A program made the position numbers and the translations under genes. The notes beneath the pieces were generated by a model. It saw only the letters and a list, made by a program, of their open reading frames with translations. It was not told where the DNA came from and did not search any database. From the NCBI GenBank assembly GCA_963791345.1, contig CAWBRS010000021.1, forward strand, positions 208,225-272,224: a DNA stretch of 64,000 bases, read 5' to 3'. Shown piece after piece: positions 4,516 to 48,927 of the stretch. This stretch comes from an uncultured Thermoleophilia bacterium. Its GTDB lineage: Bacteria; Actinomycetota; Thermoleophilia; UBA2241. The first letter of the stretch is position 1, and each line of letters opens with the position of its first letter.

Positions 4516-7038
4516 TCACAGCACCGTGATCACGCACCTCTTGACTTCGTACTGCGGGTTGCCGGCCTGGTCGACCGCCTTGAAGGTGGCGATGTACTTG
4601 CGCCGCGCCGGCGGCGTCCAGGCGGCGACGTGCGTCACGCCGGTGGTCACCCAGCCGAGGTAGAGCATCTTCACCACGACGCCGTCGCTGGCCCGCGCGA
4701 TGGTCACCGTCACCTTGGCCGTCGGGCTCCAGGCGTCGGACACGCTGTAGCGCATGCGCACCGTCGAGCCCAGGGTCACCGCTGCGGTCAGCGGCGCCGT
4801 GATGCGCGGCTTGGTGCGGTCGAGCGTCACGTTCTTGGCGACCGTCGAGGCTCCGAGCGCGCCGACCGCCTCGACCCGGGCGCGGTACACCTCGCTGGCG
4901 AGGGCGAGGCCGGCGTCGTCGAGCCCGTCCCAGGTCACGCCGTGCACCCCGGCGGCGAGCTCGCCGAGCTCGAGCGTGCGCACGACGACACCGTCGAGCA
5001 GGATCAGGGCGCGCGTCGTCGCCGGGCGCGTGAGCGTGAACCCCAGCAGCGTCTCGTCCTTCACCGCGTCGCCGTTGGGCGAGAACGAGGGTGGCGCGGG
5101 CGTGAGGTAGCCGACCGTCAGGTCGAGCCGCACGGGCAAGACCGTCACGCCCGTGTTGCCCGCCGGGTCGCGCACCTCGAGCTTGACCTGGTAGGCCCCC
5201 TCCGGCGCGCGCTTGAGCACGTCGTCGACGGGGATCTTGCCGTCCCACGGCACGGTCACGCGCGTCGTGCCGACGCTCTTCCAGCCGACGAGCTTGATCA
5301 GGAGCGTGCCTGCCTCGTCGAGCACCGAGACCCGCATGACGACCGGCTCGGCGCACTTGAACTTGAGGCGGGCGGTGTCGATGAAGGCGTCCCCGTTCGG
5401 GCTGAAGAACTGGGACCCCATGGCGCACTCGACCGGCACGGGGGCGGCCGTGTCGACCACGACCTCCATCGTCGCGGCCCGCGCCGTCCCCTGCGGGCTC
5501 GTCGCCGAGACCACCATCCGGTACGGGCCGTCGGGCACCACCGTGCCGGCGTCCGACATCCCGCCCCAGTCGGTGGAGACGTACTGGCCGCGGCCGGTCT
5601 TGGTGCGCACCACGGTCCCGTCGGCGGCCTTGACCTGCAGCGTCCAGTCGAGCACTTCGGAGCCGACGAAGCTCAGGGTGAGCCCGTCGCGGAAGTCGTC
5701 GCCGTTGGGGCTGATCACCGTGCGGGTGACCTTCACGTTGTAGATCTTCGGCAGCCCCATGCCGCCCACGGTCTTGCGCACGGCGGGCAGCAGCGCGTAG
5801 AAGGCGTCTCCCGGGCAGGCCGTGTAGTTCGCGTTGCGGTGGCCGGAGATGACGTTGAAGGTCACGGTCGAACCCTCCGTGTACTTCTGCGTCGCATAGC
5901 AGACCATCTCGGCCTTCGCCACGGGGTTGATGTGGTGCACGTCGAGCTTCCACGCCAGGAGGCGCTTGAGCGAGGTCATGGCGGCGCTCGGCGGAGTCAC
6001 GGTGCCGAAGCTCCCGATGACCGAGATGCCGGTGCTCGAGGTGTTGAACCCGTACGTCTGGGCGCCGATCGGCGCGTTGGTGATCCCGCCGTAACGGCCC
6101 TCGTAGATGACCCCGTAGCGGTCGATCAGGAAGTTGTAGCCGATGTCGCTCCAGTCGAGCGCGTGCGTGTGGTAGTAGTAGATGCCGCGCACGATGGCCG
6201 GGGCGTCGGCGGCCGAGTACGAGTTGCTCCCGGCGGTGTGGTGCACGAAGGCCATCTTGAGGGGCGCGAAGTCGGGGCTGCCCGTGCGCCAGTCCTCGTT
6301 GGCCCCCCACTGGCTGCGCAGCATGATGGCCGGCTTCGTGGTCATCGCCTGCGCCTCGGGTGCCGGGGTGAGGCCGCCGAGCGTGCAGGCGACGCTCCGC
6401 GCCGCGTTCGTGAGCGTGTCCGCCAGCGTCGCGTCACCGCTCGTGTTGAGGAAGACGAGGCGCGGCCCCGGCACCCGGCGACGGGTCCCGTCCGCCGCCG
6501 TCACCGCGACCTGCACGAAGCGCGCCTCGCCCAGCCAGACCGGGTCGGTGAAGGCGCGCGGGGCCTGCCCGCCCTCCTCGGCGACGCGCTCGACGGGCGC
6601 CGCGACCCACTCGCCCCAGGAGCGGCCGTCGGCGCTGGCCCTGAAGTGCACGGTGAGCGCGTCGACGCCGGCGGCGTCGTCGCAGAGGAGGCCGACCATC
6701 TCGTAGCGCATGCCGGCGTCGATGCGACTCACGGCCGCGCCGGCGGGCGGCGCGTCCGTCACCGCCGCGGGGTCCGCCGCCGCGTCGGCCAGCTTCTCTG
6801 CCGTCGCACCGGCGGCCGCCTCGGCGGCCGTGCCGCCCGCCGCTTCAGCGGCGCGCGTGACGATGAGGGGGTCTTCGGGGGCGACGGTCTTCGCCCGCAC
6901 CGGCGGCGCCGTGAGCCACGCGGCCGCAGCGGCGCTGACGCGCGGCACCGACCACAGGGCGCCCAGGGCGAGGCCGGTGACGATCGTGACGGCCGCGAAA
7001 CGACGGGCGCGGCCGGAGATGGCGGACGTCGCTCTCAT
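4516..7038 (-). CDS. Secreted N-acetylmuramoyl-L-alanine amidase (Amidase_2/PGRP fold) with several FlgD-Ig-like repeats
   Basis: Intact 840-aa ORF with a GGGGGAG RBS and signal-like N-terminus RRFAAVTIVTGLALGALW. Amidase core motifs are FVHHTAGSN, GYNFLIDRYG and ISGHRNANYTACPG. Repeated ISPNGDDFRDG / FSPNGDAFIDT / FSPNGDAVKDE modules follow. Confidence 0.85.
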   Translation of the reverse strand: MRATSAISGRARRFAAVTIVTGLALGALWSVPRVSAAAAAWLTAPPVRAKTVAPEDPLIVTRAAEAAGGTAAEAAAGATAEKLADAAADPAAVTDAPPAGAAVSRIDAGMRYEMVGLLCDDAAGVDALTVHFRASADGRSWGEWVAAPVERVAEEGGQAPRAFTDPVWLGEARFVQVAVTAADGTRRRVPGPRLVFLNTSGDATLADTLTNAARSVACTLGGLTPAPEAQAMTTKPAIMLRSQWGANEDWRTGSPDFAPLKMAFVHHTAGSNSYSAADAPAIVRGIYYYHTHALDWSDIGYNFLIDRYGVIYEGRYGGITNAPIGAQTYGFNTSSTGISVIGSFGTVTPPSAAMTSLKRLLAWKLDVHHINPVAKAEMVCYATQKYTEGSTVTFNVISGHRNANYTACPGDAFYALLPAVRKTVGGMGLPKIYNVKVTRTVISPNGDDFRDGLTLSFVGSEVLDWTLQVKAADGTVVRTKTGRGQYVSTDWGGMSDAGTVVPDGPYRMVVSATSPQGTARAATMEVVVDTAAPVPVECAMGSQFFSPNGDAFIDTARLKFKCAEPVVMRVSVLDEAGTLLIKLVGWKSVGTTRVTVPWDGKIPVDDVLKRAPEGAYQVKLEVRDPAGNTGVTVLPVRLDLTVGYLTPAPPSFSPNGDAVKDETLLGFTLTRPATTRALILLDGVVVRTLELGELAAGVHGVTWDGLDDAGLALASEVYRARVEAVGALGASTVAKNVTLDRTKPRITAPLTAAVTLGSTVRMRYSVSDAWSPTAKVTVTIARASDGVVVKMLYLGWVTTGVTHVAAWTPPARRKYIATFKAVDQAGNPQYEVKRCVITVL

Positions 7039-7163
7039 GACTCCCCCTCAGTGTCGACAGCTGCGGCGGCTTGCCTTAGCCGCTCTTCGGCCCCGGAGAG
7101 CGCGATTCCTCCGTGCGGGCGCGGACCTCCGCCGGCGGGCGGGCGCGCGGACCTCCGCGTAAC

Positions 7164-7211: not shown

Positions 7212-8648
7212 TCAGTGGACGCCGACCGTCTCGTCATCCATCGTCTCGGCCCCGAGCGCACTGCGGCTCGCCACCGGGCCGTGCCCGTTGCCGCCGGCCT
7301 CGCGCCCGGCGACGTAGCAGTCCCAGACCGGGGCGTAGACCCGGTCGACCTCGGTCGAGTACTCGTCGATGTCGCGGCTCAGCTCGGTGAAGAGGCTCTC
7401 CGCCCCGGGGTGCGTCGGCCGGGCTCCGGTGAGCGCCATGATCTCCCGCGACTGGTGGGGGTTGTCGATGAGCATGCACGGCTTGAACAGGTTGTGGCTG
7501 AACGGCTGCCGGCTGCGGATCTCGCGGAAGAAGGGCGAGTTGAAGGCGTCGGCGAGACTCGTGTCGCGGATGTTGTCGGTGGCGAAGTGGGTGAAGATGC
7601 AGGGCTCGACCCAGCCCTCGCTGTCGATGTGCATGTAGTGCTTGCCGGCGATGCAGCCCTGGACGTACGGCGCGTCGCCCCAGAAGTCGACCGTGAAGAT
7701 GGGCTTCGTGTCGCGGAGGCGCCAGATGCCCTCGCGGAAGGCGTTGCGCTCCTCCGCCGTCAGCATCGGCGCCACGCTCGGGTCGCGGCCGATCGGCATG
7801 TAGAGGAAGTTCCAGCTGAGCACGGCCCCGCGGGCGACGAGCGGGTCGACCCACTCGTCGCTGACCAGCATGCGCCAGTTGTCGCGCGTCACCGTGGCCG
7901 AGTAGCCGTAGAGCACGCCGCGCTCGCCGAGCAGGTCCATCATCGCGAGGAGGTGGCGGTAGACGCCCTTGCCGCGGCGCGCGTCGGTCGACGCCTCGTC
8001 GCCCTCGAGGCTGAGCATGGGGGCGACGTTGCCGAGCCCGGCGAGCTCGTCGACCAGGCGCTCGTCGAGCAGCGTGCCGTTCGTGTACACCTGGAAGTAG
8101 CACTCCTGGTTCGCCGCCGCGAGATCGAGCAGCCCGTCGTACATGAACGGTTCGCCGCCGAGGATGGTGAAGAAGTAGACGCCCATCTCGTTGGCCTGCT
8201 CGACGATGCTCTGCAGCAGCTCGGGCTCGAGGTCCTGGTCGGGGGAGTACTCACCGGCGAAGCAGCCCGCGCAGCTCAGGTTGCAGCGCATGGTCGGGCT
8301 GATGAGGATCGTCGTCGGCGCCCAGAGACCCGGGGCCTGGGCCATGAACTCCTTCCGCTTGGCGACGCCGCGAAGAAGCGTGTTGATGATAAGGCACTCG
8401 ATGAAACGCTCGCGGCACTTCGGACTGAGGTCCCGGCTCACGTGGCGGGCGATGCCCAGGGCGGGGTGATCCGCCTCGATCTGGCCCTTGACGTGACGAA
8501 CGACGCCCTTGTACTCGTCGGGGGTGACCTTCTCGGCCAGCTGCATCGTACGCAGGATCTTCTTCTTGTCGCCGCTGCCGGCCATCTTCAGCATCTCGTT
8601 GATGATGCGTCGCTGCACGCTGCTGTAGAGGCCCGATGTGCGGCTCAT
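7212..8648 (-). CDS. Radical SAM enzyme with a C-terminal auxiliary-cluster (SPASM/twitch-like) region
   Basis: Intact ORF. The CNLSCAGC (CX3CX2C) motif follows ISPTMR. Later cysteines lie in GCIAGKHYMHIDSEGWVEPCIF..KPCM. The ATG at 8648 is preceded by GGAGGG. Confidence 0.85.
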   Translation of the reverse strand: MSRTSGLYSSVQRRIINEMLKMAGSGDKKKILRTMQLAEKVTPDEYKGVVRHVKGQIEADHPALGIARHVSRDLSPKCRERFIECLIINTLLRGVAKRKEFMAQAPGLWAPTTILISPTMRCNLSCAGCFAGEYSPDQDLEPELLQSIVEQANEMGVYFFTILGGEPFMYDGLLDLAAANQECYFQVYTNGTLLDERLVDELAGLGNVAPMLSLEGDEASTDARRGKGVYRHLLAMMDLLGERGVLYGYSATVTRDNWRMLVSDEWVDPLVARGAVLSWNFLYMPIGRDPSVAPMLTAEERNAFREGIWRLRDTKPIFTVDFWGDAPYVQGCIAGKHYMHIDSEGWVEPCIFTHFATDNIRDTSLADAFNSPFFREIRSRQPFSHNLFKPCMLIDNPHQSREIMALTGARPTHPGAESLFTELSRDIDEYSTEVDRVYAPVWDCYVAGREAGGNGHGPVASRSALGAETMDDETVGVH

Positions 8649-9037
8649 CGCACCCTCCCTCCCCTCCGCGCGGCCGCGCCCTACGGTCGCGCGGTGACGT
8701 CGTCGGCGGTGCACGGGCACGACCAGGGGCGCCGCCGCGGCCCGGACCGCGCCCTCGGCCCGCCGGTGCCCTCGGCCCGCCCGTGCAGGCGGCCGGTGTG
8801 CAAAGAGTCTACCACCCGAAGGGCCGCCCGAGCCTGTTGCGTGCCCGCCGTCGCACCGAACGGGTGCCGGCGGCCTCGAGGCGGCGGTACGGCGAGTGTC
8901 GCAGCGGGCGTGCCGGCGGGTGCCGGCGGGCGCTCAGGCGTACGCCGGCGGGCGCCGCAGCCGGGCCCGTCGCCCGGGCGGCTACACGTACCCTGCCAAT
9001 TCGTCTAAGGAGTCAGGCACGCGCGCCGATACAGACA

Positions 9038-9124
9038 CAGAGCGAGAAGGGCAAACCTGTCGTGAGGCAGGGACGCAAAGCCAGAGGTCTTGGATGCTCA
9101 AGATAGCTCGGTTGCCGAATTCAG
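9038..9124 (+). promoter_or_regulatory. Candidate c-di-GMP-I (GEMM-I) riboswitch aptamer
   Basis: GGGCAAACC (9049-9057), a 6-bp stem CCUGUC/GGCAGG closed by the GNRA loop GUGA, GGGACGCAAAGCC (9070-9082) and a 3' strand AUAGCUCGGUUGCCGAAU. This matches the Vc2-type signature as I remember it. It lies 127 nt upstream of the ATG at 9251. Confidence 0.7.
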
Positions 9125-9250
9125 ACACCGTGGTCTTCTGCCTCCACCCCTTGCCGCGCACTCCCGCCTCCCGGGCATCCTGAGACCGGTCGCCCGCTCG
9201 GCGCCCGGACGCGGGCGACGAGAGGAGCCCCCCGAGTGGAGGCGAGTGAG

Positions 9251-10946
9251 ATGAGAAGGCACATCCTTACCCTTGCGGTCCTGGCGCTGCTGTGCGCCGC
9301 CGTCTGGCCGGCGGCCGCGGCGGCCGGCGACCAGGGGCTCGGCGCCGCCGTCGACGAGAGCGTCGTCGTGGCGCTCGACGCCGCCGAGGGCGAGGCGGTG
9401 CCCGTCATCGTGTTCGCCCCCGGCCACCTCGGCGACGTCGGCGCGCAGCTGCCGAAGGGCGTCGAGGTGACGGAGCTCGCCGCCGTCGACGCCGTCGCCG
9501 TGTGGCTGAGCGCGCGGCGAGATCGCCGAGCTCGGCGACGAGCCGTGGGTCGAGTACATCGTCGCCGACAACCCCGTCTACGGGATCGGCGTCGCCGCGA
9601 TGGACGTGACCAACCTCGCCATCGGGCTCGGCGACCTCGCCGCGCTCGGGGCCGACGCCCCCGCCGGGCGCGGCGTCACCGTCGCCGTGATCGACAGCGG
9701 CGTCACCGTGCACGACGACCTCGGCGACGAGCGCCTGGTCGGCTGGCGCGACTTCGTGAAGCGCCGGAAGGAGCCGTACGACGACGCCGGCCACGGCACC
9801 TTCGTCGCCGGCCTCATCGCCGGCGACGGCAGCGCCTCGCTGCCGCTCGACGAGGGCGGCTTCGCCACCGTGCAGTTCCGCGGCGTCGCACCGGCCGCCG
9901 ACATCGTCGCCGTCAAGGTCCTCGACAAGTTCGGCCGCGGCCGCGCCTCGAGCCTGATCGCCGGCATCCTCTGGGCGGTCGAGCAGCGCGACGCCCTCGG
10001 CATCGACGTCATGAACATCTCGGTCGCCGGCACGCCGGCCGGCCCGGTCGAGGTGGACCCTGTGGCGCAGGCCGTGCGGACCGCCTGGGAGGCCGGGATC
10101 ACGGTCGTCTGCGCGGCCGGCAACGAGGGCGAGTTCGGCCTCGGCGGCATCCTCAGCCCCGGCAACGAACCGCACGTGATCACCGTCGGGGCCACCGACA
10201 CCAAGGAGACACCCGAGGTGGCCGACGACCGCGTCGCCGCCTACAGCTCCTACGGCCCGACCCTGTACGACGAGTACGCCAAGCCCGACCTCGTCGCCCC
10301 GGGCAACCGCAACATCTCGCTGCGCACGCCGGGCAGCTACATCGACAAGACCTTCCCCGAGAACGTCATCCCCGTGGAGGACTACTGGGACGCGGACGCC
10401 CTGGCGGCGGTGTCGCCCGCGCCGGAGTCCGACTACCTCATGCTCTCCGGCACCAGCACGTCGGCACCGGTGGTCGCCGGCGCCGCCGCCCTGATGCTCG
10501 AGGACGACCCCGAGCTCACGCCCGACGACGTCAAGGTGCGCCTCATGGCGAGCGCCGACCCGGTGCCCGGTGACGGCGGGCGACGCCTACACGCCAGCAG
10601 GGCGCCGGCACGATCGACGTGCCCGAGGCGCTGTCGCTCGACGACCTGTACGCCGACGGCCCGGCGCTCTCGGCCGACCTCGGCGACGGCGACGACGATC
10701 CTGCCGACCGACGTGTACCTGAGCTGGGCGAAGTACGCCTGGACGAAGTACGCGTGGACGAAGTACGCGTGGAGCAAGTACGCCTGGACCAAGTACGCGT
10801 GGACGAAGTACGCCTGGACCAAGTACGCGTGGACGAAGTACGCCTGGACCAAGTACGCGTGGACGAAGTACGCCTGGACGAAGTACGCCTGGACCAAATA
10901 CGCGTGGACCAAGTACGCGTGGACGGTGCTGATCGAGGGGCAGTGA
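9251..10946 (+). CDS. Secreted subtilisin-like serine protease (peptidase S8) with a C-terminal (KYAWT)n repeat; frameshifted as sequenced
   Basis: Signal peptide MRRHILTLAVLALLCAAVWPAAAAAG and an I9-like propeptide are present. The catalytic triad motifs are VAVIDSGV, HGTFVAG and SGTSTSAPVVAG. The frame switches near 9515, 10575-10620 and 10690. Confidence 0.85.
10725..10926 (+). repeat. 15-bp tandem repeat, about 13.5 copies, with an underlying 30-bp alternation, encoding (KYAWT)n
   Basis: tgg-acg/acc-aag-tac-gcc/gcg is repeated in frame. Variation is almost entirely at synonymous third positions, with one Thr-to-Ser change. Confidence 0.95.
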
Positions 10947-12479
10947 CCGGGGTCGCTCAGAGCGAGCGTCCCGGCGAGACGGCCGCGCGCACGCACGCGG
11001 CCGTCTCGCTCTACGTCGCCCTCATCGCGACGGCCGCCGTCGCCGCGGGGCTGCTGGCGGTGCTCCGCGACCCGTCGCCGCTGCCTCTCGACCTGCGTCG
11101 CCTTCGTCGCCCTCGCGACGGTGACCGACCTGCGGGAGGTCCGCTTGCCGGTCGTCGGCGTCGTCACGCTCTCCTTCGTGCCGGTGCTCGCGGCGCTCAT
11201 CGTCTTCGGCCTCTGGCCGGCCCTGCTCGTCGCCGCCGTCTCCGGCCTCGCCACCGCGTGGTTCACCCGCGACCCGGTGAAGATCCTCTTCAACGCCGCC
11301 AACTACGCCCTGTCGACGTTCCTCGCCGGGCTCGTCTACCTGGCTCTCGTCCCGGCCGGCGAGCAGCTCCTCGACAAGGTCCTGCCGACCTTCGCCGCGA
11401 CCGCCGTGGACTTCTTCGCCAGCACCGTCATGCTCGCCGGCGTCGTCGCCATGGCCAGCGGCGAGCGCGCCCTGCGCATCTGGCGGCAGAACTACCAGTG
11501 GGGCCTGCCGAGCTACCTGACGGGCTCGACCATCGCCCTGCTCGTCGCCTGGCTCTACCTCGCCTTCGGCATCGCCGGCCTGATCCTCGTCCTGCCGCCG
11601 CTCTACCTCATCTACTACTCGTACGACATCTACGTGAAGCGCGTGCGCGACACGGCCGCCTTCGGCGCCGAGATCGCCTCCTTCAAGGAGGAGCTCGTCG
11701 CCTCGACCGCCCTCCACGACGAGCTCCGCGCCACGCAGACCAAGGTCGCCGCCGAGATCGAGCGCGCGCGCCGCATCCAGCACGACCTGCTGCCCGCGGC
11801 GGCCCCCGACGTGCCGGGCCTCGCCCTCGAGCAGCGGATCGAGTTCCTCGGCGAGATGGGCGGCGACTACTACGACTACCTCGACTTCGGCGACGGCCGC
11901 CTCGGGGTGGTCTGCGGCGACGTCATGGGCAAGGGCCTCGCCGCCGCCCTGATCATGGCGATGGCGCGCTCGCTCCTGCACGACGCCGTCGCCCCGGGGC
12001 GCTCGCCGGGCGACGTGCTGCACGACGTCAACGAGTCGCTCTCCCGCGACCTCGAGGGGCAGAGCCTCCCCTACTTCCTCACCCTCACCCTCCTCGCCTA
12101 CGACCCGGACGTCCGCACCGCCACGGTGGCGAGCGCGGGTCACAACCCCGTGCTGGTGCTGGGCGAGGACGGCGCGCGGCGCCTGCCGGCGCAGGGCGCC
12201 GTCCTCGGCGTGCGCGCCGGACTCGACTTCCCCGAGGACGTCATCGCCCTCGGCCCCGGGGACCGGCTGGCGCTCTACACCGACGGCCTGACCGAGGCGC
12301 GGGCGCCGGGCGGCGAGCTCTTCGGCGTCGACCGGCTGGAGGAGTCGCTGGCACGCTGCCGTGGCCGCAGCCTCGGCGACGCGCTCGGGGCGACCTGGGC
12401 TGAGGTCGCCGCCTTCCGCGGCGAGACGCCTGCCTCCGACGACGCCACCCTCCTGCTGCTGGAGGTGGCGGCGCGATGA
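10943..12479 (+). CDS. Membrane-anchored PP2C-family (SpoIIE/RsbU-like) serine phosphatase
   Basis: The part 11121-12479 is an intact 452-aa ORF with multiple TM helices, then RRIQHDLLP, GGDYYDY, VVCGDVMGKG, LYTDGLTEA and ASDDATLLLLEV. A likely N-terminal extension starts at the GTG at 10943, which overlaps the protease stop (GTGA), with one frame break near 11090. Confidence 0.75.
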
Positions 12480-13295
12480 AGACCATCGACGAGATCCGCC
12501 CCGACGAGCGCGAGGTGCAGGTGACGCCCGAGGACGGACCGCTGCCCTGCTCCCTGCACGTCTACCGCTACCGCCGCGCCGGCGGCCGCATCGAGGCGGT
12601 GGTCGGCGCCTACGACGCCGGGCTGCCCGAGGAGGACCTGATCGCCCAGGCCGACGAAGCGCTCGAGCGGGCGACCTTCATGTGTTACGCGGTCGCCCAG
12701 GCCGGGGACTTCGTCGAGGACGAGCTCTGCTTCGTCCCCTGCGGCGAGCACTGCGAGATCCTCAGCATCCACACCAACGGCTGGCAGCGTCACTACGGCG
12801 ACCACCGCCGCAGCCTGATCGAGATCCTCAGCGATCTCGCGGCGGCCGTCGCCTGCGGCCGCCTCCGGCTCCTCGACACCGACCAGCTCGCGGCCGAGGC
12901 CGCGGCCGGCGACGAGCTGCTGCACATGGCGATCGACGAGCCGCGCGCGCTGAGCAAGGCGCGGCGCGCGGTCGACGCCCGCCTCACTGCCGAGGGGCTC
13001 GACCCCGCCCTGCGGCGCACCACCCTCCTCCCCATCTCCGAGGCCGTCACCAACATGCTCCTCCACGGGGGCGGCTCGGGTGAGCTCACGTTGCGCCGCC
13101 TGCCCGACCGCCTGCGCGCCGTGGTCAGCGACCGCGGCCCCGGGCCTCAACTTCCTCAACTGGATCGAACCGCCCGACGTGAGCGGGCAGGCGTCCATGG
13201 GCTACGGCTTCAAGATCATCACCGAGAACCTCGACGTCGTCGGGCTGCACACGCGGCCCGCCGGCACCACTCTGCTCCTTGACCGTATCGTCTGA
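12476..13295 (+). CDS. RsbW/SpoIIAB-like anti-sigma-type serine kinase (HATPase_c_2) with an extra Cys-containing N-terminal domain; one frameshift
   Basis: The start overlaps the upstream stop (ATGA). The C-terminal half reads ISEAVTNMLLHGGGSGELTLRR..VSDRGPG | LNFLNWIEPPDVSGQASMGYGFKIITENLD..LLLDRIV, with a frame break near 13145. The N-terminal ~130 aa contain CFVPCGEHC. Confidence 0.7.
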
Positions 13296-13319
13296 CGAGG
13301 TAGGAAATCATGTTGCAGA
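13274..13319 (+). repeat. Copy A of a 46-nt imperfect direct repeat (kinase 3' end / RBS / STAS start)
   Basis: The core gaccgtatcgtctgacgaggtagg (13281-13304) is identical to 16334-16357. Confidence 0.9.
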
Positions 13320-13624
13320 CATCGATAGTCCCCGGTCCCGCCCCCACCATCTTCCTCGCCGGCGAGATGGACCTCGACTGCGCCGACGGGCTGCGCTCCG
13401 CCGTCGCGGGCGCCGCCCGCGGCGCCCAGGCCGTGACGCTCGACTTCAGCGGCGTCGAGTTCATCGACTCGTCGGGCACGGGCATCTTCGTGCGCCTCTG
13501 TCTCGATCTGAAGAGCCAGGGCGTGCCGGTGGTGGCCCGCAACCTGACCGCGCCCGTGCACGGCGTCTTCGAGATGCTGCGCGTGCGCGAGCTGGTCGGC
13601 GAGGACGTGCTGCCGGTCGCCTGA
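13310..13624 (+). CDS. STAS-domain anti-sigma-factor antagonist (RsbV/SpoIIAA-like)
   Basis: Intact 104-aa ORF. TLDFSGVEFIDSSGTGIFV carries the conserved phosphorylatable DSSG serine. A GAGGTAGG RBS precedes the start. Confidence 0.85.
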   Translation: MLQTSIVPGPAPTIFLAGEMDLDCADGLRSAVAGAARGAQAVTLDFSGVEFIDSSGTGIFVRLCLDLKSQGVPVVARNLTAPVHGVFEMLRVRELVGEDVLPVA

Positions 13625-13706
13625 GCGAGCGGACCGCCGAGCTGACGGGCCGCTCGAGACGACACCGGGGCGGGCCTCCGGGCCCGCCGCCTCCCGTGGG
13701 TGGCGA

Positions 13707-13748
13707 GACGGGCGGGGCGGCGAGCGTACGCTCGCCGCCCCGCCCGTC
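13707..13748. terminator. GC-rich hairpin between convergent genes
   Basis: Perfect 20-bp stem gacgggcggggcggcgagcg / cgctcgccgccccgcccgtc. Confidence 0.5.
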
Positions 13749-13766
13749 AGCGTCGCCGAGGCTCCC

Positions 13767-15005
13767 CTACTGACAGAAGGCCACCAGGAACTCGTCCCAG
13801 TTGGTCTGGGCACCGAAGGCCAGCGTCGTGCGGTAATCGGTCAGATTGTCGGCCGTGTAGCCCTTGAGCTGGGTCGCGGTGCTCGGCCACCAGATGGCGA
13901 CGCCCTTCGCCTTCGCGACCTTGCTCGAGCCGTTCGTCCAGTTGAGCGTGACATCGCTGGTCACGGCCGCCATCACCGCGTCGCACTTGGCCTTGATGAG
14001 CGCGTCGGCCACCTTGAGCTTGATCTGGTAGGCGGCGTCGTAGAGGTCCTTCTCGGTCTTGTCGGTGAACATCTGCGTGTTCTTCCACGCCGTGAGGTAG
14101 GCGCTCTTGTAGACCGGCAGTCCGGCCGTGAGGGCGATCGCCCACTGATCGACGGCCGTCTTCAAGGTGGTGAAGCGCGTGTCGAGCGCCAGCGACGAGT
14201 ACGTGATGCTGTCACCCAGGGCGGTCGCGGCGATCTTGTCGCTGACCTGCTGGGCGGTCATCGTCGGCGTGGCGCGGATCGCGCTGATGACCTGGTCGTA
14301 CTGGATGCCCTCCCAGTTGGTGTACTGCTCGGAGCCGGCCATCGCCTGGGCGTAGGGCTGCCAGTTCGCGGCGATCTCGATCATCTGGCGCTGGCAGCAG
14401 TCCCAAGCGACGGTATCGACGGCGCCGGCCGTCTGCATGGCGGTCACTTGCTCACCGTCGTCGAGGCTGTCGGCGCTGGTGTCGTCGCGCATGTTCCAGT
14501 ACTTGGGGAACCACATGTAGCCGTGGTCCCAGAAGACGAGCAGGTACCTGCTGGCCGGGCAGTTGGCCTTCGTCCAGCTGACGAAATCGCTGAGCGTCTG
14601 AGGGTCGCCCATGTTGCGCTCGCCCCAGTCGGCGACGGCGCTGGGCGCGTCGGGCAGCATGCCCTGGGTGCAGTAGAAGAGCTTGGTCGTCTGCCAGTCG
14701 CCGTACGTCGTGTCGTAGCCGGGCCCGCGGTCGGCGAGGGCGACGACATTGACATCCGCGTTGGAGCCCAGGGCGCTCAGCTCGTCCCTGAGGTCGAGGG
14801 TGACGTAGTTCTCAAGGTTGTTGTCGCCGACGATGTAGACCATCACCGTCCAGGCCTTGGAGGGCTGGGGGAACGTGGTGCTCGCCATCGCCCTGTCCGT
14901 CGTGACGGCGGCTGCGACGACCGTGGCGATCAAGGCGATCGCCGCCACCAGGACGATCGCCGTGGTGGTGGAGCCTCGGTTCGACTGAAGCCTTCTTCCG
15001 AACAT
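13767..15005 (-). CDS. Membrane-anchored clostripain-family cysteine peptidase (peptidase C11-like)
   Basis: Intact ORF. The start is taken at MFGRRLQ after GGAGGAGG. A TM anchor AIVLVAAIALIATVVAAAV is present. Family motifs are WTVMVYIVGDNNLE, LLVFWDHGY and VAWDCCQRQM (His/Cys dyad context). Confidence 0.75.
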   Translation of the reverse strand: MFGRRLQSNRGSTTTAIVLVAAIALIATVVAAAVTTDRAMASTTFPQPSKAWTVMVYIVGDNNLENYVTLDLRDELSALGSNADVNVVALADRGPGYDTTYGDWQTTKLFYCTQGMLPDAPSAVADWGERNMGDPQTLSDFVSWTKANCPASRYLLVFWDHGYMWFPKYWNMRDDTSADSLDDGEQVTAMQTAGAVDTVAWDCCQRQMIEIAANWQPYAQAMAGSEQYTNWEGIQYDQVISAIRATPTMTAQQVSDKIAATALGDSITYSSLALDTRFTTLKTAVDQWAIALTAGLPVYKSAYLTAWKNTQMFTDKTEKDLYDAAYQIKLKVADALIKAKCDAVMAAVTSDVTLNWTNGSSKVAKAKGVAIWWPSTATQLKGYTADNLTDYRTTLAFGAQTNWDEFLVAFCQ

Positions 15006-15191
15006 GGAATAGCCTCCTCCGTTGGACTGTCCACGACTCACACCCGCGTCGTCTCGTGACGACCTGGATCACTGGGGCAGTGTGATGATTCACCGGAGCG
15101 AGGAGCGCCGCAAGCACAGACTGACGCCGGTGTACGTATGAATGGTATCTTGGCGAAGGTTGCGTGAATGTAGGTACGGCAGGGGGGGATC

Positions 15192-16253
15192 GTGACCGTC
15201 ACGCACGAGTCAGAAGTAGCCGCGGGTGCCCGCTCCCCGAGCGACGACGAGTGCCTCGAGTGGCTGTGGCGGCGGCGATACTCGACCAACGGCCGAGACG
15301 CAGAGTGCCCACAGTGCGAGCGTCTGCGGCACCACCACCGCATTCGCAGCCGCCGCTCCTATGCCTGCGACCACTGTGGCCACCAGTTCTTCCCCACAGC
15401 GGGCACGCCGTTCGGCCGGTCGAGCACACCGCTGTCGACCTGGCTCGAGATCGCGCACCTGTTCATGACCGAGGCCGATGACGTCACCGCGAGAGAGATC
15501 CAGCGACGCTTTCGCCTCGAGTATCGCACCGCGCTGCGCGTCAAGGCGCGGCTGCGTGACGCGCTGGCCGATGCGACGGAGGCTCCACTCGTCACACACG
15601 CAGTCAACGACTTGTTCGGGCGTGCCGGAGCCAGACGACGAGCCTCTCGCGTGGACCCGCGTACGCGCGCCCGCGTGAACAACATCCGCGCCGTCGCCGC
15701 TCGTGTCTTCGCCCAGCGGGGCTTCGCCCACACGTGCGTGGCCGACATCGCCGCCCTGTGCGGTGAGTCCAGCGCCGTCATCCGACATCATTTCGGCAGC
15801 AAGGACGAGCTGCTCCACGCCGCCATGCTGTGGACCCAGGAGCAGGGTGCGACACGCCTGCGCGAGCTCATGCGCCGCGAGCGGGACCCCCGCCGGCGCC
15901 TTGAGGCCCTTCTTGAGATCGCGCTGCCCACCACCGACGAGATCAGAGACGAGTACCTGCTCTGGCTCGACGCGTGGGCGCGGTCACGCGGCGAGCGTCG
16001 CTTCGACCAAGAGGCGATCTTCTCGGTATGGCACAAGACCGTCGTCGCGGTGGTGCGAGAAGGTGAGGCCGCGGGTGTCTTTCGCCTCTCGCACCCGCCG
16101 GAGGACTTCGGCGACGCCTTCGTCGCGTTCGTCGACGGGCTGTCGTTCAAGGTGGTCGAGCACTATGCCGAGATGCCGCTCGATCGCGCGCAGCATCTGC
16201 TTCGGCAGTGGGTCGGCGATCAGTTGGGCCTGGTATCACCGCCCTCCGGGTAG
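15192..16253 (+). CDS. Fusion regulator: IS1595-type transposase zinc-ribbon/HTH N-terminus joined to a TetR/AcrR-family regulator
   Basis: Intact 353-aa ORF. The N-terminus ECLEWLWRRRY..CPQCE..YACDHCGHQFFPTAGTPFGRSSTPLSTWL..REIQRRFRLEYRTALRVKARLRDAL matches the N-terminal module of IS1595 transposases. No DDE domain is present. The C-terminal half carries the TetR HTH FAQRGFAHTCVADIAALCGESSAVIRHHFGSKDELL. Confidence 0.75.
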   Translation: MTVTHESEVAAGARSPSDDECLEWLWRRRYSTNGRDAECPQCERLRHHHRIRSRRSYACDHCGHQFFPTAGTPFGRSSTPLSTWLEIAHLFMTEADDVTAREIQRRFRLEYRTALRVKARLRDALADATEAPLVTHAVNDLFGRAGARRRASRVDPRTRARVNNIRAVAARVFAQRGFAHTCVADIAALCGESSAVIRHHFGSKDELLHAAMLWTQEQGATRLRELMRRERDPRRRLEALLEIALPTTDEIRDEYLLWLDAWARSRGERRFDQEAIFSVWHKTVVAVVREGEAAGVFRLSHPPEDFGDAFVAFVDGLSFKVVEHYAEMPLDRAQHLLRQWVGDQLGLVSPPSG

Positions 16254-16326
16254 TCGACGTGATCGGCTGAGCCGCGCCTCGGGCTCGGTGGTCGCCCGGC
16301 GGTGCGCACGCGGAGGGCGCCGCCTC

Positions 16327-16372
16327 GCTCCTCGACCGTATCGTCTGACGAGGTAGGGAACTATGTCTGCGA
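16327..16372 (+). repeat. Copy B of the 46-nt imperfect direct repeat; a remnant of a kinase 3' end, RBS and ATG
   Basis: It reads ..EGAASLLDRIV* then gaggtaggg..atg. About 39 of 46 nt are identical to 13274-13319. No STAS-like ORF follows. Confidence 0.85.
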
Positions 16373-16427
16373 CCCCGCCGCCCGCGCGTCAGGGCGGCGG
16401 CGCGGCCTCGTGCCGCCGCCCGGGGCC

Positions 16428-16841
16428 TCAGAGCGTGAAGGAGAGGCTCCCGGCGCCACCCGAGGTGTCGCCCGCCGCGTCGGCGGCCGGCTCCGCCGGG
16501 TCGGGCGTCGGCGTCGGCGACGCCGTAGGGGTCGGCGACGGGGAAGGCTCCACCTCTTCGAGGTAGAGCACGCCGGGGTAGTCCGCGAACTGCCTCGACC
16601 CGGCTTCGGGGTCCTGCCCGAGGACGACGGCATCGGGCACGGTCGCGGGGTCCAGGTCGCCGGGCATGACCTTCGGGACCAGCAGGAAGCCCGCGTCGGC
16701 CCACGCCTGGACCGCCTCGGCCACCGTCATGCCGACGACGTCAGGCGTGATGATGCCGCCCGGCTTGGCCTGGGCGTTGATCGTCGCGAAGAGCGCGGCC
16801 GCGGCCGCCCAGACGACGATCACGGTGATCCAGCGTCTCAT
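16428..16841 (-). CDS. Small secreted PASTA-like domain protein with a Pro/Thr-rich tail
   Basis: Intact 137-aa ORF with a GGGGGAGAGG RBS and signal/TM segment WITVIVVWAAAAALFA. PDVVGMTVAEAVQAWADAGF is PASTA-like. Confidence 0.6.
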   Translation of the reverse strand: MRRWITVIVVWAAAAALFATINAQAKPGGIITPDVVGMTVAEAVQAWADAGFLLVPKVMPGDLDPATVPDAVVLGQDPEAGSRQFADYPGVLYLEEVEPSPSPTPTASPTPTPDPAEPAADAAGDTSGGAGSLSFTL

Positions 16842-20970: not shown

Positions 20971-23140
20971 CTATAGCAGGCTCGGAGCCGGGAGGCACGG
21001 CGCCGGGAGGCACGGCGCCGGCCCGCCGGCGTCGCCTCCCCGATGCTCGCCCCGTCGGTGCGGTAGTCGCGCGGCACGAGGTTGAGCAGCACCTCGCAGG
21101 GCGCGTAGTCGATCACGTGGTCGACCGTGCTGCCGAAGGCGCGTTCGGCGATGCGCCGCTTCTTGACCGTGCCGAGGATGATGACCTCGGAGCGGCGCTG
21201 CGTCGGCCTCCTCGACGATCGCCCGCCCGGCGTGGCGCGCCGTGACGATGATCGGGGCGAAGTGCACCTTGAACTGCTCGGCGATGAGGCCGGCCGCGCC
21301 GAGCACGCGCTCGGCGCGCGCGCGCTGCTCGCGGAGCTCGGCGTCGAGCGGCAGGTTCAGCGGCACCTCGATCACGTAGAGCGCGTCGATCGCCGAGCCC
21401 TTCTCGGTGGCGAGCTGACAGGCGAGGACCATCATCTCGTCGGTGATGCGGGTGCCGACGATGGGCACGAGGATGCGGTCGTAGTCGATGTCGGCCTGCA
21501 TCGAGGCCGGCACGACGACGCGGGCGATGGTGCGCGTCAGCGAGTACCCCTTGAGCTTGCGGTAGACGACGTAGGTGACGATGCCGACGCCCATCCAGAG
21601 GAAGCCGATGAGGCGGCCCTCGGCGTGCGTGGCCACGACCACGCACCACACGGTGAAGGTGCCCGGCGCCGCCGATGATCGACAGCAGCGGCAGGGAGTA
21701 CCCGCGCACGCGCACGTTGAGCGGGCTGCGGAACGGCCGCGGGGTGTCGGGCTCCTTGATGCGCAGGGCGACGACGGCGACGTGCGCCGTGGTGAACGAG
21801 ATCATCGCCCCGAAGGCGTAGAGGTCGGCGAGCAAGCTCGTGCTGCCGGGGATGATGAGGAGGCAGGCGATGAGGCCGAACACGATGATCGCCACGTACG
21901 GCGTGAGCCGCCGCGGGTGGATGCGACCGAGCAGCGGCGGCACCTGCCGGTGGACGCCGAGCGAGTACGCCAGGCGTGACACGCCGATCAGCCCCGCGTT
22001 GGTGGCGATCACGAGGATCGTCGCCGCGAGGATGCCGACCCACGGGGCGAGGATCGCCGCGCAGCCACGCCAGCTCCTCGGGCATGAACTTGACGATGCC
22101 GAGGACCGGGTCCTCGACGTACGCGCTGCCGAGCTGGGTGCCGTGGAGCTCCGTGACCCAGCCGTCGCCCTCCTGGACGACCTCGCCGGTCGGCTCCTGC
22201 GCTGAGGTATCACGTAGTCGTCGCCCTGTCGCTCGACCGGCACGTAGACCGGCTGTCCGGGGTCGGCGGCGAGCACGTACGTGCCCTCGGGCTCGCCGGG
22301 CACGACCTCGGTCGCCACCGTTCTGTGCGTCGCCGGGTCGACGGCCACGGTGTTCGAGCCGACGGGCATGGCGGAGAGCGCGACGAGCGCCATGCCGATG
22401 TACACGACGAGCACGGTGGCGAGCACCATGTTGATCGCCCGCGGCACGTCGCGGTCGGGGTTGGCGGCCTCCTCGGCCATGTTCGAGATGGTCTCGATGC
22501 CGGTGTAGGCGATCGGTGCCGATGGAGATGCCGTAGAGGAGCTGGCTCCAGGTCGGCGCCGTGCCGAGGTCGATCTGCTCGATCAGGATGCGGCGGCTCG
22601 AGCAGCAGGATCACGCCGATCACCATGACCAGCACCTGGGTGGCGAGGTCGAGGGCGGCGAGCAGGACGTTGAGTCGCGCCGCCTCCTTGATGCCGATCA
22701 CGTTGACGACGACGAGCGACGAGGATCACGGCGATGCCGACGATCGTGTCGTAGGGGTACGTCCTGAGGGCCGGCCAGAAGACGGCCATGTAGTGCGGCA
22801 CGAAGAAGGCCGAGATGGCGATGGTGACGATGTAGTCGAGCATGAGCGCCCAGCCGGCGCCGAAGCTGACGAACTCGTTGAAGGCGCGGCGGGCGAAGCT
22901 CGACGAGCCGCCCGCCTCGGGCACCATCGCCGTCGCCTCGGCGTACGACCAGGCGGTCGTGATGAAGAGCAGCCCGGTGAGGGCGAAGACGATCGGCGTC
23001 GCGCCCATCGCGTACAGCGCGACGACGCCGAGGGCGTAGTAGATCGACGAGCCGACGTTGCCGTAGGCGGTGCTGAACAGCGCGGGGACGCCGAGCACCT
23101 TCTTGAGGCTCTCCCCTTCTCTGTGCTTGCGTCTGGCCAT
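20971..23140 (-). CDS. APC permease-Usp fusion, copy 2; at least 6 frame breaks as sequenced
   Basis: The N-terminus is MARRKHREGESLKKVLGVPALFSTAYGNVGSSIYYALG. Pieces are found in ORFs 22583-23140, 22210-22701, 21113-22480 and 20971-21651. The Usp part is ILVPIVGTRITDEMMVLACQLATEKGSAIDALYVIEVPLN. Confidence 0.7.
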
Positions 23141-23200
23141 GGTCTACCTCTGGAGGACGTACGGGTGTGGTCGCGCGATGGGCGAGGAGGCGGCGCGCGC

Positions 23201-23359
23201 TAGAGCGTGCGCCAGCGGAACGCGGCGTAGACCAGGAGCAGGATGCCGGCGACGAGCTGCATCGAGATCGGGCCAGAGACCGCCGGACGCGCCGTAGACG
23301 ACGAGGGCGACGCCCAGCACGGCGGCCACGATGGTGAAGATCTGTCGGGTCAGGCGCAT
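23201..23359 (-). CDS. Possible tiny 2-TM membrane protein (about 52 aa) with one frame break
   Basis: Read from the DNA as MRLTRQIFTIVAAVLGVALVVYGASGGLWP | ISMQLVAGILLLVYAAFRWRTL*. It has no recognisable family. Confidence 0.3.
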
Positions 23360-23452
23360 GTCCAAAGAAGAGCCGGCGCCGTGGGCGCCGGCCTTGGACA
23401 TCGAATGTAGCACCGCGCCATGGCCCTTACAAGCGGCGGATGGCCCCGCGCG

Positions 23453-30204: not shown

Positions 30205-32312
30205 CTACTGGACCAGGAACGGGATCACGAGCAGGGCGACGATGTTGATGACCTTGATCATCGGGTTGATGGCCGGGCCGGCGGTGTCCTTGTAGGGGTC
30301 GCCGACCGTGTCGCCGGTGACCGCCGCGGCGTGGGCCTCGGAGCCCTTGCCGCCGTAGGCGCCGTCCTCGATGAGCTTCTTGGCGTTGTCCCACGCCCCG
30401 CCGCCCGAGGTCATCGAGATGGCGAGGAAGATGCCGGTGATGATCGTGCCCATGAGCACGCCGCCGAGCACCAGGTAGGCCTTGTCCCAGAAGACGAGCG
30501 CGACGATGATGGGCGTGAGCACCGGGATCGCGGCCGGCAGCATCATCTCGCGGATCGCCGACTTGGTGACGATGTCGACGGCCTTGCGCGTAGTCCGGCT
30601 TGCCCGTGCCGTCCATGATGCCGGGGATCTCGCGGAACTGACGCCGCACCTCTTCGACCACCTGCCCGCCGGCCTTGCCGACGGCCTTCATGCAGAGCGA
30701 GGCGAAGAGGTAGGGCAGCAGGCCCCCGAGCAGCAGGCCGATGAGGACCCACGGCTCGTTCACGCGGAACATCTCGATCACGCCCTCGCCGAAACTCTCC
30801 TTCAGGTCGTTCGTGTACGAGACGAAGAGGATGAGGGCGGCGAAGCCGGCCGAGCCGATCGCGTAGCCCTTGGTGATGGCCTTGGTGGTGTTGCCGACCG
30901 CGTCGAGCGGGTCGGTGGTGTTGCGCACCTCTTCGGGCAGGTCGGCCATCTCGGCGATGCCGCCGGCGTTGTCGGTGATGGGGCCGTAGGCGTCGATGGC
31001 GACGATGATCCCGGTCATCGAGAGCATGGCCATGACGGCCACGGCGATGCCGTACAGCCCGGCCTCGCCGCCGCCGGCGACCTCGTAGCTCACGAGGATG
31101 CCGGCGCCGATGGCGACCACGGGCAGGGCCGTCGACTGCATCGAGACGGCGAGGCCCTGGATGATGTTGGTCGCGTGCCCGGTGACGCTCGCCTTGGCGA
31201 TGCTCTTGACCGGGTTGTAGCGCGTCGCCGTGAAGTACTCGGTGATGATGACGATCAGGGCGGTCACGACGATGCCGCTGACGGCACACCAGAACATGCG
31301 GTTCACGCTCGGCATGCCGGCGGCCTTGACGGCGTCGTTGTCCAGCATCCAGTAGGTGACCGGGTAGAAGAGCGCGATCGCGATGACGGCCGCCGCGGCG
31401 AGCCCCTTGTAGAGCGCGTTCATGATGTTCTGGCTGCTGCCGAGGCGCACGAAGAAGGTGCCGATGACGCTGGCGATGATCGACACGCCGCCGAGGACCA
31501 GCGGGTAGGTGACGGCGACGCCGACCTCGGGCCAGAAGAGGAAGGCGAGCAGCATCGCCGCCACGGCGGTGACGGCGTAGGTCTCGAACAGGTCGGCCGC
31601 CATGCCGGCGCAGTCGCCGACGTTGTCGCCGACGTTGTCGGCGATGACGCCGGGGTTGCGCGGGTCGTCCTCGGGGATGCCGGCCTCGACCTTGCCGACC
31701 AGGTCGGCGCCGACGTCGGCGGCCTTGGTGAAGATGCCGCCGCCGACGCGGGCGAAGACCGAGATGAGGCTGCCGCCGAAGCCCAGGCCGACGAGCGCGT
31801 AGACCGCGTAGTCGCCCCAGAACTTCGTGCCCAGCCAGTAGTACACGGCCACGCCGAACAGCGCCAGACCGACGACCAGCAGACCGGTCACGGAGCCCCC
31901 GCGGAAGGCGACCTTGAGCGCCGGGCCGAGACCCTGCTTGGCCGACTCGGCGGTGCGCACGTTGACGCGCACGCTGACCATCATGCCGATGTAGCCCGCG
32001 GCGGCCGACAGGCAGGCGCCGACCACGAAGCCGACGGCGGTCACGACGCCGTACGTCCAGCCGCGCTCGGTCAGCCCCAGAGCCACCAGCAGGATGACGA
32101 ACACGACCGACGCCGACCATGGCGATGGTCCTGTACTGCCGGTTCAGGTAGGCCTTGGCGCCCTCCTGCACGGCGCCGGCGACCTCCTGCATCTTGGCGT
32201 CGCCTGCCGGCAGGGCCATCAGCCAGCGGATCAGCACCACGCCGTACGCGACGGCGACGATGGCGCAGATCACGGCGACGAGCATCGCGTTGTCAGACAC
32301 CCAGCTTCCCAC
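30205..32312 (-). CDS. hppA: Membrane-bound ion-translocating pyrophosphatase; two frame breaks
   Basis: Motifs [54 protein letters not shown] and [22 protein letters not shown]. An AAAGGAG RBS precedes the GTG at 32312. Frame breaks lie near 32100 and 30590. Confidence 0.9.
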
Positions 32313-32423
32313 TTCCTGCTCCTTTCGCGGCCGGCACGGGCCGGCGCCCGCACAGCGCCGCGCGGCGAGGACCGCGCGGCGGTTGGCGTCATGACCGGGT
32401 GAGGCGAGCGCCCCGCGCGGATC

Positions 32424-33293: not shown

Positions 33294-33479
33294 CTCACCC
33301 TCCCCTTCGGACCTTGGGCCGTCGGGAGTATACAAGGTGGCCATCGGGCGGCAAACTTCGTTGCGGACGGCGACCGCCGCGCCCTAGAATCGCCAGCGAC
33401 CGGCGCGGCGCGCGTCGGTCGCCGCGGCGTCGGCCCGCGCCCCGGACCGCCGCATCCGCCTGCCGAAAGGAGACGTCAC

Positions 33480-47741: not shown

Positions 47742-47792
47742 CGTTCGCTCTGTCACGAATCCAGGGCGGCCCGCGGACGAACGGGAGAGCAG

Positions 47793-48495: not shown

Positions 48496-48919
48496 GACTC
48501 GAAGAGCTCGCAAAGGACATCGGGGCCCGCGTCGTCACGCCGGGCCGCCCGGGTGGCACCGAGGTCACCCGCATCTACGCCGGCGATCGCGTCAGCGACC
48601 TCCTCAACGAGGCCTCCGACACGACGCTGCTCGTGAGCAACCTGGCCAGCGTCCAGATGCTCCGCGTGGCCGAGCTGATGGACGTGCCCGGCATCTGCTT
48701 CGTCGGCGGCATCGAGCCCGACGACGATGTCATCGAGCTGGCGCGCGCCAACGGCACCCTGCTCATGGTCTCGCCCGTCGGGGTCTTCGAGACCTGCGGC
48801 CTGATCTACCGCTACCTCGGCGGCGAGCGGGAGCAGGGCGCGAACGGCGCCGCCGCGAACGGCGGCGCGGCGCGCCGCAGCGCGAGACCGGCGGGCGCGG
48901 CGCCCGGGACGGAGGCTGA
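48492..48919 (+). CDS. DRTGG-domain protein, copy 1; the 3' end is uncertain
   Basis: MRLEELAKDIGARVV..RIYAGDRVSDLLNEASDTTLLVSNLASVQMLRVAELMDVPGICFVGGIEPDDDVIELARANGTLLMVSP matches the small DRTGG proteins I recall from hydrogenase loci. The end is assumed to be the frame-2 TGA at 48917-48919. Confidence 0.55.
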
Positions 48920-48927
48920 CCGGCGGC

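Follow-up and report, generated by a model that had tools for sequence, protein, structure and literature searches.

What does a complete partner-switching module control when no sigma factor is encoded with it? We address this question for a locus in the metagenome-assembled genome (MAG) of an uncultured soil Thermoleophilia bacterium (GenBank assembly GCA_963791345.1), in a stretch of 64,000 nt on contig CAWBRS010000021.1 that we refer to as the window (G000:C21:208225-272224, where G000 is the source MAG, C numbers denote contigs, and G and L codes denote the related genomes and loci compared). The MAG comprises 3.13 Mb in 21 contigs and is 77% complete, and the window has a GC content of ~71%. 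On the forward strand, a class I cyclic di-GMP (c-di-GMP-I) riboswitch aptamer is followed by genes for an S8 subtilase, a MASE9-PP2C phosphatase, an RsbW-fold kinase and a STAS protein, with Pfam matches to Peptidase_S8, MASE9 and SpoIIE, HATPase_c_2, and STAS/STAS_2, respectively. The explanation that accounts best for this locus, in which we place even confidence, is that of a unit gated by a c-di-GMP riboswitch that would co-produce a surface subtilase and a self-contained triad of phosphatase, kinase and STAS protein whose partner is encoded elsewhere.

The arrangement of the four genes, resolved by third-position GC plots and three-frame translation, is compact. As described in the initial annotation of this DNA, the protease stop overlaps the phosphatase start (GTGA, 10943-10946), so that the phosphatase GTG lies within the overlap, the phosphatase stop overlaps the kinase start (ATGA, 12476-12479), and the STAS gene begins just past the kinase stop (TGA 13293-13295, ATG 13310), a gap of 14 nt. 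The protease gene itself does not start at 9038, where that annotation begins the operon; the riboswitch lies there instead, and the protease ATG is at 9251. Genes on the minus strand precede the unit, encoding a radical SAM/SPASM protein (7215-8798) and an Amidase_2/FlgD_ig protein (4519-7041), and a convergent C11 peptidase gene follows it (13776-14993). Since both flanks lie on the opposite strand, the four genes form a bounded unit. A hairpin between the convergent genes is the likely transcript end; a consensus terminator scan missed it because it has no T-run. On the grounds of the overlaps, the 14-nt gap, the flanks and this terminal hairpin, we read the stretch from the riboswitch through the STAS gene as a putative single transcription unit, a reading that forms part of the overall explanation and is as evenly poised. 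Coordinates are collected in Table 1.

Table 1. Location of the riboswitch, genes and hairpin of the unit (positions in the window) and of sigma factor/kinase gene pairs in sister families.
Feature	Location	Strand	Evidence or remark
c-di-GMP-I class riboswitch aptamer	9041-9120	+	RF03167 and RF01051, both above gathering
Leader and putative expression platform	9121-9250	+	Shine-Dalgarno GGAGG 9238-9242, then ATG 9251
Secreted S8 subtilase (predicted)	9251-10946	+	Peptidase_S8 (PF00082), E 9e-47 and 3e-45
MASE9 multi-pass N-terminal domain with PP2C (SpoIIE) phosphatase	10943-12479	+	Pfam matches
RsbW/SpoIIAB-fold serine kinase with ~150-aa N-terminal domain	12476-13295	+	HATPase_c_2
STAS-only protein, anti-sigma-antagonist type	13310-13624	+	Intact in this assembly
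GC-rich hairpin, ~19-20 bp	13707-13748		Between convergent STAS and C11-peptidase genes; RNAfold of 13620-13780 and string search
Sigma and RsbW-kinase pair	G022:C5:618148 and 618946
Sigma and RsbW-kinase pair	G024:C1:2688440 and 2689337
Sigma and RsbW-kinase pair	G023:C43:2547 and 3289
Sigma and RsbW-kinase pair	G025:C23:452-1117 and 18-413

The three regulators make up the complete RsbU-, RsbW- and RsbV-like set that had been proposed for this locus, with a PP2C domain matched end to end, conserved kinase boxes, and an invariant phospho-acceptor motif. The triad thus has the components by which a partner switch is defined, without a linked target. The phosphatase matches SpoIIE (PF07228) at E 1e-48 over profile positions 2-191 of 192, and its N-terminal part matches MASE9 at E 6e-7 to 1e-6 (29-30 bits against a cut-off of 24.3), with several transmembrane segments between residues 17 and 227 in a hydropathy scan. 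The nearest solved PP2C domains are those of RssB (3eq2), 6k4e and Rv1364c. The STAS protein matches STAS_2 (PF13466, E 2e-13) and STAS (PF01740, E 4e-12), both above their cut-offs, while TIGR00377 gave 41 bits, which is below its cut-off. Its sole sequence match in the PDB is RsbV (6m36_B), and the motif FIDSSG, which contains the DSSG serine, is invariant in 61 orthologues. Judged from these sequence features, all three regulators look functional, and phosphorylation of the STAS protein and its exclusive binding to the kinase are predicted. Genes for such proteins are common in this genome (~12 HATPase_c_2, 5-7 STAS, and ~6 SpoIIE genes) and mostly scattered; the operon is the only locus at which PP2C, kinase and STAS genes are adjacent.

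The kinase combines a familiar catalytic part with an N-terminal domain that appears to be its own. Its match to HATPase_c_2 (PF13581) has an E-value of 4e-10 (40 bits against a cut-off of 27.4), and the C-terminal half of its structural model was matched by Foldseek to RsbW (6m37), SpoIIAB (1l0o and 1til) and UsfX (8ih8), with E ~1e-6 and probability 1.0 for 6m37, 1l0o and 1til. The ATP-binding boxes (N193, D219-x-G221-x-G223, and G242) are invariant in 64 sequences. The best NCBIfam match, the RsbA family NF041045, reached 48.3 bits against a threshold of 210, so the kinase falls outside that family, and the alignment covers the kinase part only (family positions 185-298 of 303). Residues ~25-155 match nothing in Pfam or NCBIfam. 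Modelled separately with AlphaFold (pLDDT 76), this region forms an alpha/beta sandwich that has no significant neighbour in the PDB (best E 4.6e-3); longin, roadblock, and LuxR-ligand-binding-domain folds were considered and set aside, as the likeness is vague (TM ~0.3). A profile search of 1.84e9 representative proteins returned only 23 matches, most of them about as long as members or fragments of this kinase family would be, which argues against the domain occurring in other architectures. By profile and model comparison, this is an undescribed domain of narrow, clade-restricted distribution. Its invariant residues are C85, C93, W103, R105 and the run G108-D-H-R-R-S113, with H106 and H107 nearly invariant, a pattern that suggests a metal, redox or ligand site.

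We looked for a sigma factor on which this triad might act. Profiles for Sigma70_r2, Sigma70_r3 and SigBFG are all without a match inside the window, in agreement with the initial annotation, and neither a cognate sigma nor another target accompanies the module, since its flanks are unrelated and on the opposite strand; the same is true in relatives. Partner-switch loci that lack a sigma gene are usual in Actinobacteria, and such a locus is not in itself surprising. The genome contains 13 sigma-type genes, of which one is a SigB/F/G member (C21:89598-90275, 294.7 bits against a cut-off of 234). This gene lies 128 kb from the operon; its neighbours are a DUF948 gene and alaS, and no HATPase_c_2 gene adjoins it. 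SigBFG sigma factors were found in 16 of 18 genomes of the family, both exceptions being incomplete genomes, and also in sister families that lack the operon. Their phyletic pattern was therefore set aside as uninformative, as they occur both with and without the operon.

Comparison with sister families suggests where the partners of this sigma factor are encoded. In four of them, a small RsbW-type kinase gene directly follows the SigB/F/G gene (Table 1), and in three of the four (G022, G024, and G025) a STAS gene lies 0.2-3.5 kb away. Two of these sigma/kinase/STAS neighbourhoods span G022:C5:618148-620082 and G024:C1:2687995-2689693. The best match of the sister kinases in the source genome is a 141-aa RsbW (C16:328926-329321), which is present in 18 of 18 genomes of the family, and the sister STAS proteins best match C21:390071 and C10:155750. 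No sister sigma-linked kinase or STAS protein matches the kinase or STAS protein of the operon at E < 1e-4. The small RsbW gene on C16 has no adjacent STAS gene, and in the family of the window, where the sigma gene has alaS as its neighbour, kinase and STAS genes are dispersed. Because the sister proteins match other loci, we interpret the operon triad as an additional, non-canonical partner switch, and the canonical SigB/F/G switch of this genome appears to be encoded separately. Elsewhere on the same contig, a minus-strand open frame (G000:C21:147860-148768) encodes an N-terminal part that is STAS-like by eye, without a STAS profile match, followed by an HATPase_c_2 domain; it could be a single-chain fusion of antagonist and anti-sigma factor.

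The riboswitch places the whole unit in the context of c-di-GMP signalling. The second-messenger riboswitch that had been suspected ahead of the module is a c-di-GMP-I aptamer, scoring 69.9 bits for RF03167 (gathering threshold 59) and 72.6 bits for RF01051 (gathering threshold 35). It sits in the 5' leader, 130 nt upstream of the subtilase start, and is almost invariant among 22 aligned leaders. Leaders of relatives also keep the motif GTGGAGGCGA followed by ATG. The segment CCTCCAC (9141-9147) is complementary to GTGGAGG (9236-9242), a possible pairing that would mask the Shine-Dalgarno sequence. Alignment folding of the 22 leaders (alifold) gave no covariation in support of this pairing or of a platform downstream of the aptamer, a terminator scan found no intrinsic terminator in the leader, and the minimum free energy fold of the leader has a z-score of -0.7. 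At least 15 genes in the genome encode GGDEF domains, and c-di-GMP signalling is therefore present in this organism; there is no GGDEF match in or beside the operon. The genome contains exactly two c-di-GMP-I aptamers. The second, outside the window on the minus strand (G000:C21:78335-78409; 61 bits for RF03167 and 60 bits for RF01051), is flanked by a FliA-like sigma gene and an ABC ATPase gene ~570 nt downstream, and the FliA-like gene (C21:78624-79289) lies inside a type IV pilus cluster (T2SSE, T2SSF, and prepilin peptidase). In Clostridioides difficile, both a secreted protease (PPEP-1) and a signalling operon (CmrRST) are regulated by riboswitches for c-di-GMP (PMC11477304). In light of these precedents, the protease-first layout of the operon fits surface remodelling under c-di-GMP.

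The first gene encodes a subtilase that had been proposed to be secreted, and the protein has an S8 domain, triad motifs and a signal peptide. The match to Peptidase_S8 (PF00082) scores 155-160 bits. The protein consists of a signal peptide (MRRHILTLAVLALLCAAVWPAAAAAG), a propeptide-like segment, a catalytic domain with the Asp/His/Ser triad (the translation of the window contains the motifs VIDSG, HGTFVAG, and SGTSTSAP), a linker, and a repeat tail, and the closest solved structure is that of Tk-SP (3afg). The tail comprises thirteen in-frame KYAWT pentapeptides (10731-10925) encoded by 15-nt DNA repeats, and the protein ends in VLIEGQ* at 10946. Distant orthologues carry K[FY][KRA]WT tail arrays of varying length (KFKWT, KFRWT) and share the ending [IV]L[IL][EQ]GQ*. 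This ending may be conserved because the last codons, GAG GGG CAG TGA, hold the Shine-Dalgarno sequence and start of the next gene. The intact orthologous subtilase has 566 aa and is, judging by these features, probably a Sec-exported protease of the cell surface.

Synteny of the protease with the three regulators, which the initial annotation had put forward for checking, is conserved: each related locus for which there is sufficient context has the four genes in one and the same order, so that this test was passed. When 30 relatives were searched at the DNA level, the complete locus turned up throughout the genus and family; a kinase profile run against species-representative genomes yielded 64 loci, nearly all in Thermoleophilia or Actinomycetota MAGs (four were otherwise labelled). 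The titles of these records refer to uncultured Thermoleophilia or Actinomycetota, and 'MFD' long-read MAGs are frequent among them. The plus-strand order S8, PP2C, kinase, STAS and the upstream minus-strand amidase and radical SAM genes are kept in all loci with enough context, and the gene order holds down to 47-50% kinase identity. An aptamer lies upstream of the S8 gene in 52 loci (nhmmer), and those without a match mostly lack upstream sequence. Gene calls of three distant genomes show a 4-nt overlap of the S8 and PP2C genes and gaps of 42-47 nt and 11-12 nt. Within the main clade, the STAS protein is the best conserved of the four (~86%, against ~62% for the kinase). Overall, more than 50 related species share this layout, and the linkage to the protease is without exception.

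The initial annotation treated the operon as four continuous open reading frames, and it missed that three of the four are broken by frameshifts in this assembly. The protease frame shifts at 9516, the phosphatase frame at 11095, and the kinase frame at 13142; the protease is also out of frame relative to its orthologues over 10567-10697, with bases missing at 10567-10590 and loss of the conserved motif QQGAGTLDV. The shifts at 9516, 10697, 11095 and 13142 all result from a single additional G, which three relatives at 93-95% identity (L002-L004) lack; programmed frameshifting was rejected on this ground. In L004, all four frames are intact, with lengths of 571 (566 from ATG), 574 (511 from the overlapping ATG), 272 and 103 aa. 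Compared with two relatives, G000 has private one-base insertions in other parts of the window too, at a rate of 1-3 per kb; eight of them within 2.4 kb (21023-23437) split a conserved permease gene into several frames, and 31538-33334 contains two such insertions and one deletion. We considered that the operon is decaying in this genome and that the frameshifts are real, making three of the four genes pseudogenes. Five to six insertions or deletions within 4.4 kb, affecting all three large genes, are consistent with decay, which we nevertheless regard as improbable: unrelated conserved genes in the window, such as the permease gene, carry private insertions just as densely or more so, the shifted frames keep a third-position GC of 0.9-1.0, the only premature stops are those that the insertions and deletions cause, and sister MAGs have private ones of their own, for instance 12 insertions in the S8 gene of G004. 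Such a pattern is typical of unpolished long-read assemblies. As the breaks are private to G000, L004 is intact, and insertions occur at a similar rate elsewhere, we consider them very probably long-read assembly errors and not gene decay, and frame breaks in these long-read MAGs are best treated as probable errors rather than as pseudogenes.

From the anatomy, conservation, motifs, folds and separate canonical module observed here, we infer the biochemical steps and the nature of the target as follows. The riboswitch would gate a single transcript, and the protease would be exported, with its basic and aromatic tail possibly retaining it. A membrane or envelope cue would be read by the MASE9-PP2C protein, which would dephosphorylate the STAS phosphoprotein at the serine of FIDSSG, and the kinase would phosphorylate it again, both as known from these families. 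Unphosphorylated STAS protein would then sequester the kinase and release a partner that the kinase holds, probably via its clade-specific Cys/His N-terminal domain, which may double as a second, cytoplasmic input for metal or redox state. Alternatively, the STAS protein itself may act on the partner, as SypA, RbaV and BtrV do (PMC8256260). Since the triad is distinct from the canonical SigB/F/G switch, its output would be a partner encoded elsewhere, and we favour a non-sigma or indirect (cross-talk) output over one in which a dedicated sigma factor is sequestered directly. In its more specific form, which we advance tentatively, c-di-GMP gates the triad, the output of the switch is not a sigma factor, and the Cys/His domain of the kinase is of a new type that serves in sensing or docking. 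A diguanylate cyclase or an envelope enzyme might then be controlled by the STAS protein or the kinase, and a loop might be closed from c-di-GMP through the riboswitch and the phospho-switch to a surface-remodelling protease. Some points weigh against a partner outside the sigma network or against a riboswitch-gated unit as such. Cross-talk among such proteins is common in Actinobacteria, and the triad could therefore still feed the SigB/F/G sigma factor. The best-hit orthology that separates it from the canonical switch is weak, as it rests on short STAS and RsbW proteins at 27-41% identity. Because the MAG is 77% complete, the gene for the partner may be unassembled. Leaders show no conserved expression platform past the Shine-Dalgarno region from which the direction of the riboswitch, on or off, could be read.

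Control of a sigma factor in trans is possible, if on the unlikely side: the kinase would be a second anti-sigma factor for the SigB/F/G sigma or for the FliA/WhiG-like sigma next to the second riboswitch, or the STAS protein would be an additional antagonist of the small RsbW, and in each case transcription dependent on a sigma factor would be the final output. Such control would suit the presence of SigBFG in 16 of the 18 family genomes without an adjacent anti-sigma gene, the fold of the kinase, which matches the sigma-binding RsbW, SpoIIAB and UsfX, and the lack of a STAS gene next to the small RsbW gene on C16. The higher conservation of the STAS protein than of the kinase would fit several partners, and the second riboswitch adjoins a FliA-like sigma gene in the type IV pilus cluster. 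However, it is at other loci that the sigma-adjacent kinases and STAS proteins of the sister families find their best matches in this genome, some families have SigBFG but not the operon, and the kinase has an extra clade-specific domain that binding of a sigma factor does not need. The initial annotation had suggested a non-sigma output, with the protease pathway as an example. The general part of this suggestion gains from the finding that the sigma factor appears to have its own RsbW and RsbV counterparts elsewhere, whereas nothing shows the protease pathway to be the output. A switch that acts on secretion, activation or surface retention of the subtilase, or that senses its products, would account for a linkage of protease and regulators that is exceptionless and translationally coupled in more than 50 species. 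We nevertheless consider it improbable, as transmembrane helices and short loops make up nearly all of the PP2C sensor, which lacks a large extracytoplasmic domain, and co-transcription explains co-regulation, not targeting. To our knowledge, no partner switch acts on a Sec substrate. A partner encoded elsewhere is the preferred reading.

The operon shares its three protein types with the Bacillus switches RsbU/RsbV/RsbW-sigmaB and SpoIIE/SpoIIAA/SpoIIAB-sigmaF. Its kinase model superposes on the RsbW and SpoIIAB structures 6m37, 1l0o and 1til, its STAS protein shares the DSSG phospho-site with RsbV, the only protein it matches by sequence in the PDB, and its phosphatase is, like SpoIIE, a membrane protein. 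Unlike the Bacillus switches, the operon has no sigma gene, runs in the order phosphatase, kinase, STAS, carries an additional 150-aa N-terminal domain on the kinase, and starts with a protease behind a riboswitch leader, in a genome whose canonical sigma switch is apparently encoded elsewhere. SiaABCD of Pseudomonas aeruginosa consists of the membrane PP2C SiaA, the kinase SiaB, the phosphoprotein SiaC and the diguanylate cyclase SiaD. It resembles the operon in combining a membrane PP2C and an RsbW-like kinase with a link to c-di-GMP, and its output is non-sigma. SiaA is also the best NCBIfam match of the operon phosphatase, with 6k4e and 6kko among the structure matches; at 41.8 bits against a threshold of 700 (NF038263), the phosphatase falls outside the SiaA family, and there is no cyclase in the operon. 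Unlike in SiaABCD, the substrate is a true STAS protein and c-di-GMP would act upstream, via the riboswitch of the operon, rather than being the product.

Other relevant systems are similar in part. Non-sigma STAS outputs are known for SypE/SypA of Vibrio fischeri, BtrU/V/W of Bordetella, and RbaV/W/Y of Rhodobacter (PMC8256260). Like the operon, these have partner-switch parts without a sigma gene, and in them the phosphorylation state of the STAS protein is the output, but they differ in sensor domains, gene contexts and phyla and lack a riboswitch and a co-transcribed protease. The Streptomyces RsbA family (NF041045) also comprises actinobacterial RsbW-type kinases of ~300 aa with an N-terminal extension; the N-terminal domain of the operon kinase is unrelated to it, and only the C-terminal kinase part aligns. 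The C. difficile regulons (PPEP-1/ZmpI and CmrRST) combine a class I c-di-GMP riboswitch with a secreted protease in one case and a c-di-GMP riboswitch with a signalling operon in the other (PMC11477304). In our locus, unlike in C. difficile, the protease and the signalling module share one predicted transcript, and they are a subtilase rather than a metalloprotease and a partner switch rather than a two-component system. Literature searches found no paper on this operon. As far as these searches show, four of its features are undescribed, namely a riboswitch before the module, an obligate protease, a clade-specific kinase domain and a coexisting canonical switch that appears to be separate, and, as predicted from the aptamer, it would be the first case found in them of c-di-GMP acting on a partner switch through RNA.

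Several neighbouring features were observed alongside the operon. A 46-nt direct repeat of the junction between kinase end and STAS start occurs at 13274-13319 and 16327-16372 (38 of 46 positions identical), bracketing the STAS gene, the C11 peptidase gene and a fusion of an IS1595 zinc ribbon with TetR. Since 13617-16500 is absent from the relative G004, the C11/TetR block is a local insertion. The radical SAM/SPASM protein upstream of the operon has a ~100-aa N-terminal extension and scores below all NCBIfam cut-offs; peptide maturases of the Trp-Lys and KxxxW types are among its generic matches. Its conservation next to the operon is 80-84% in most loci and 66-69% in the genus of the window itself. 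We considered it as a modifier of the K/W-rich protease tail (by a Trp-Lys crosslink) and set this aside as weak speculation, since the maturase matches are generic and below threshold, the family is far broader (1765 matches), and in L092 the gene occurs without the operon alongside. Farther away, at 47781-50621, a Rex-like regulator (Put_DNA-bind_N and CoA_binding), an HATPase_c_2 frame (~48970-49326), and an FeS-domain segment lie near each other, with frames confounded by probable insertions or deletions.

Partner switches have mostly been studied as controls of sigma factors in Firmicutes. Throughout the uncultured actinobacterial clade described here, a complete triad has become firmly linked to a probable surface protease behind a second-messenger riboswitch, in addition to what appears to be a separate canonical switch. 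If its output is indeed non-sigma, the operon would be a further example beside the small number known (Sia, Syp, Btr, Rba, and Hsb) in which such a module controls something else.

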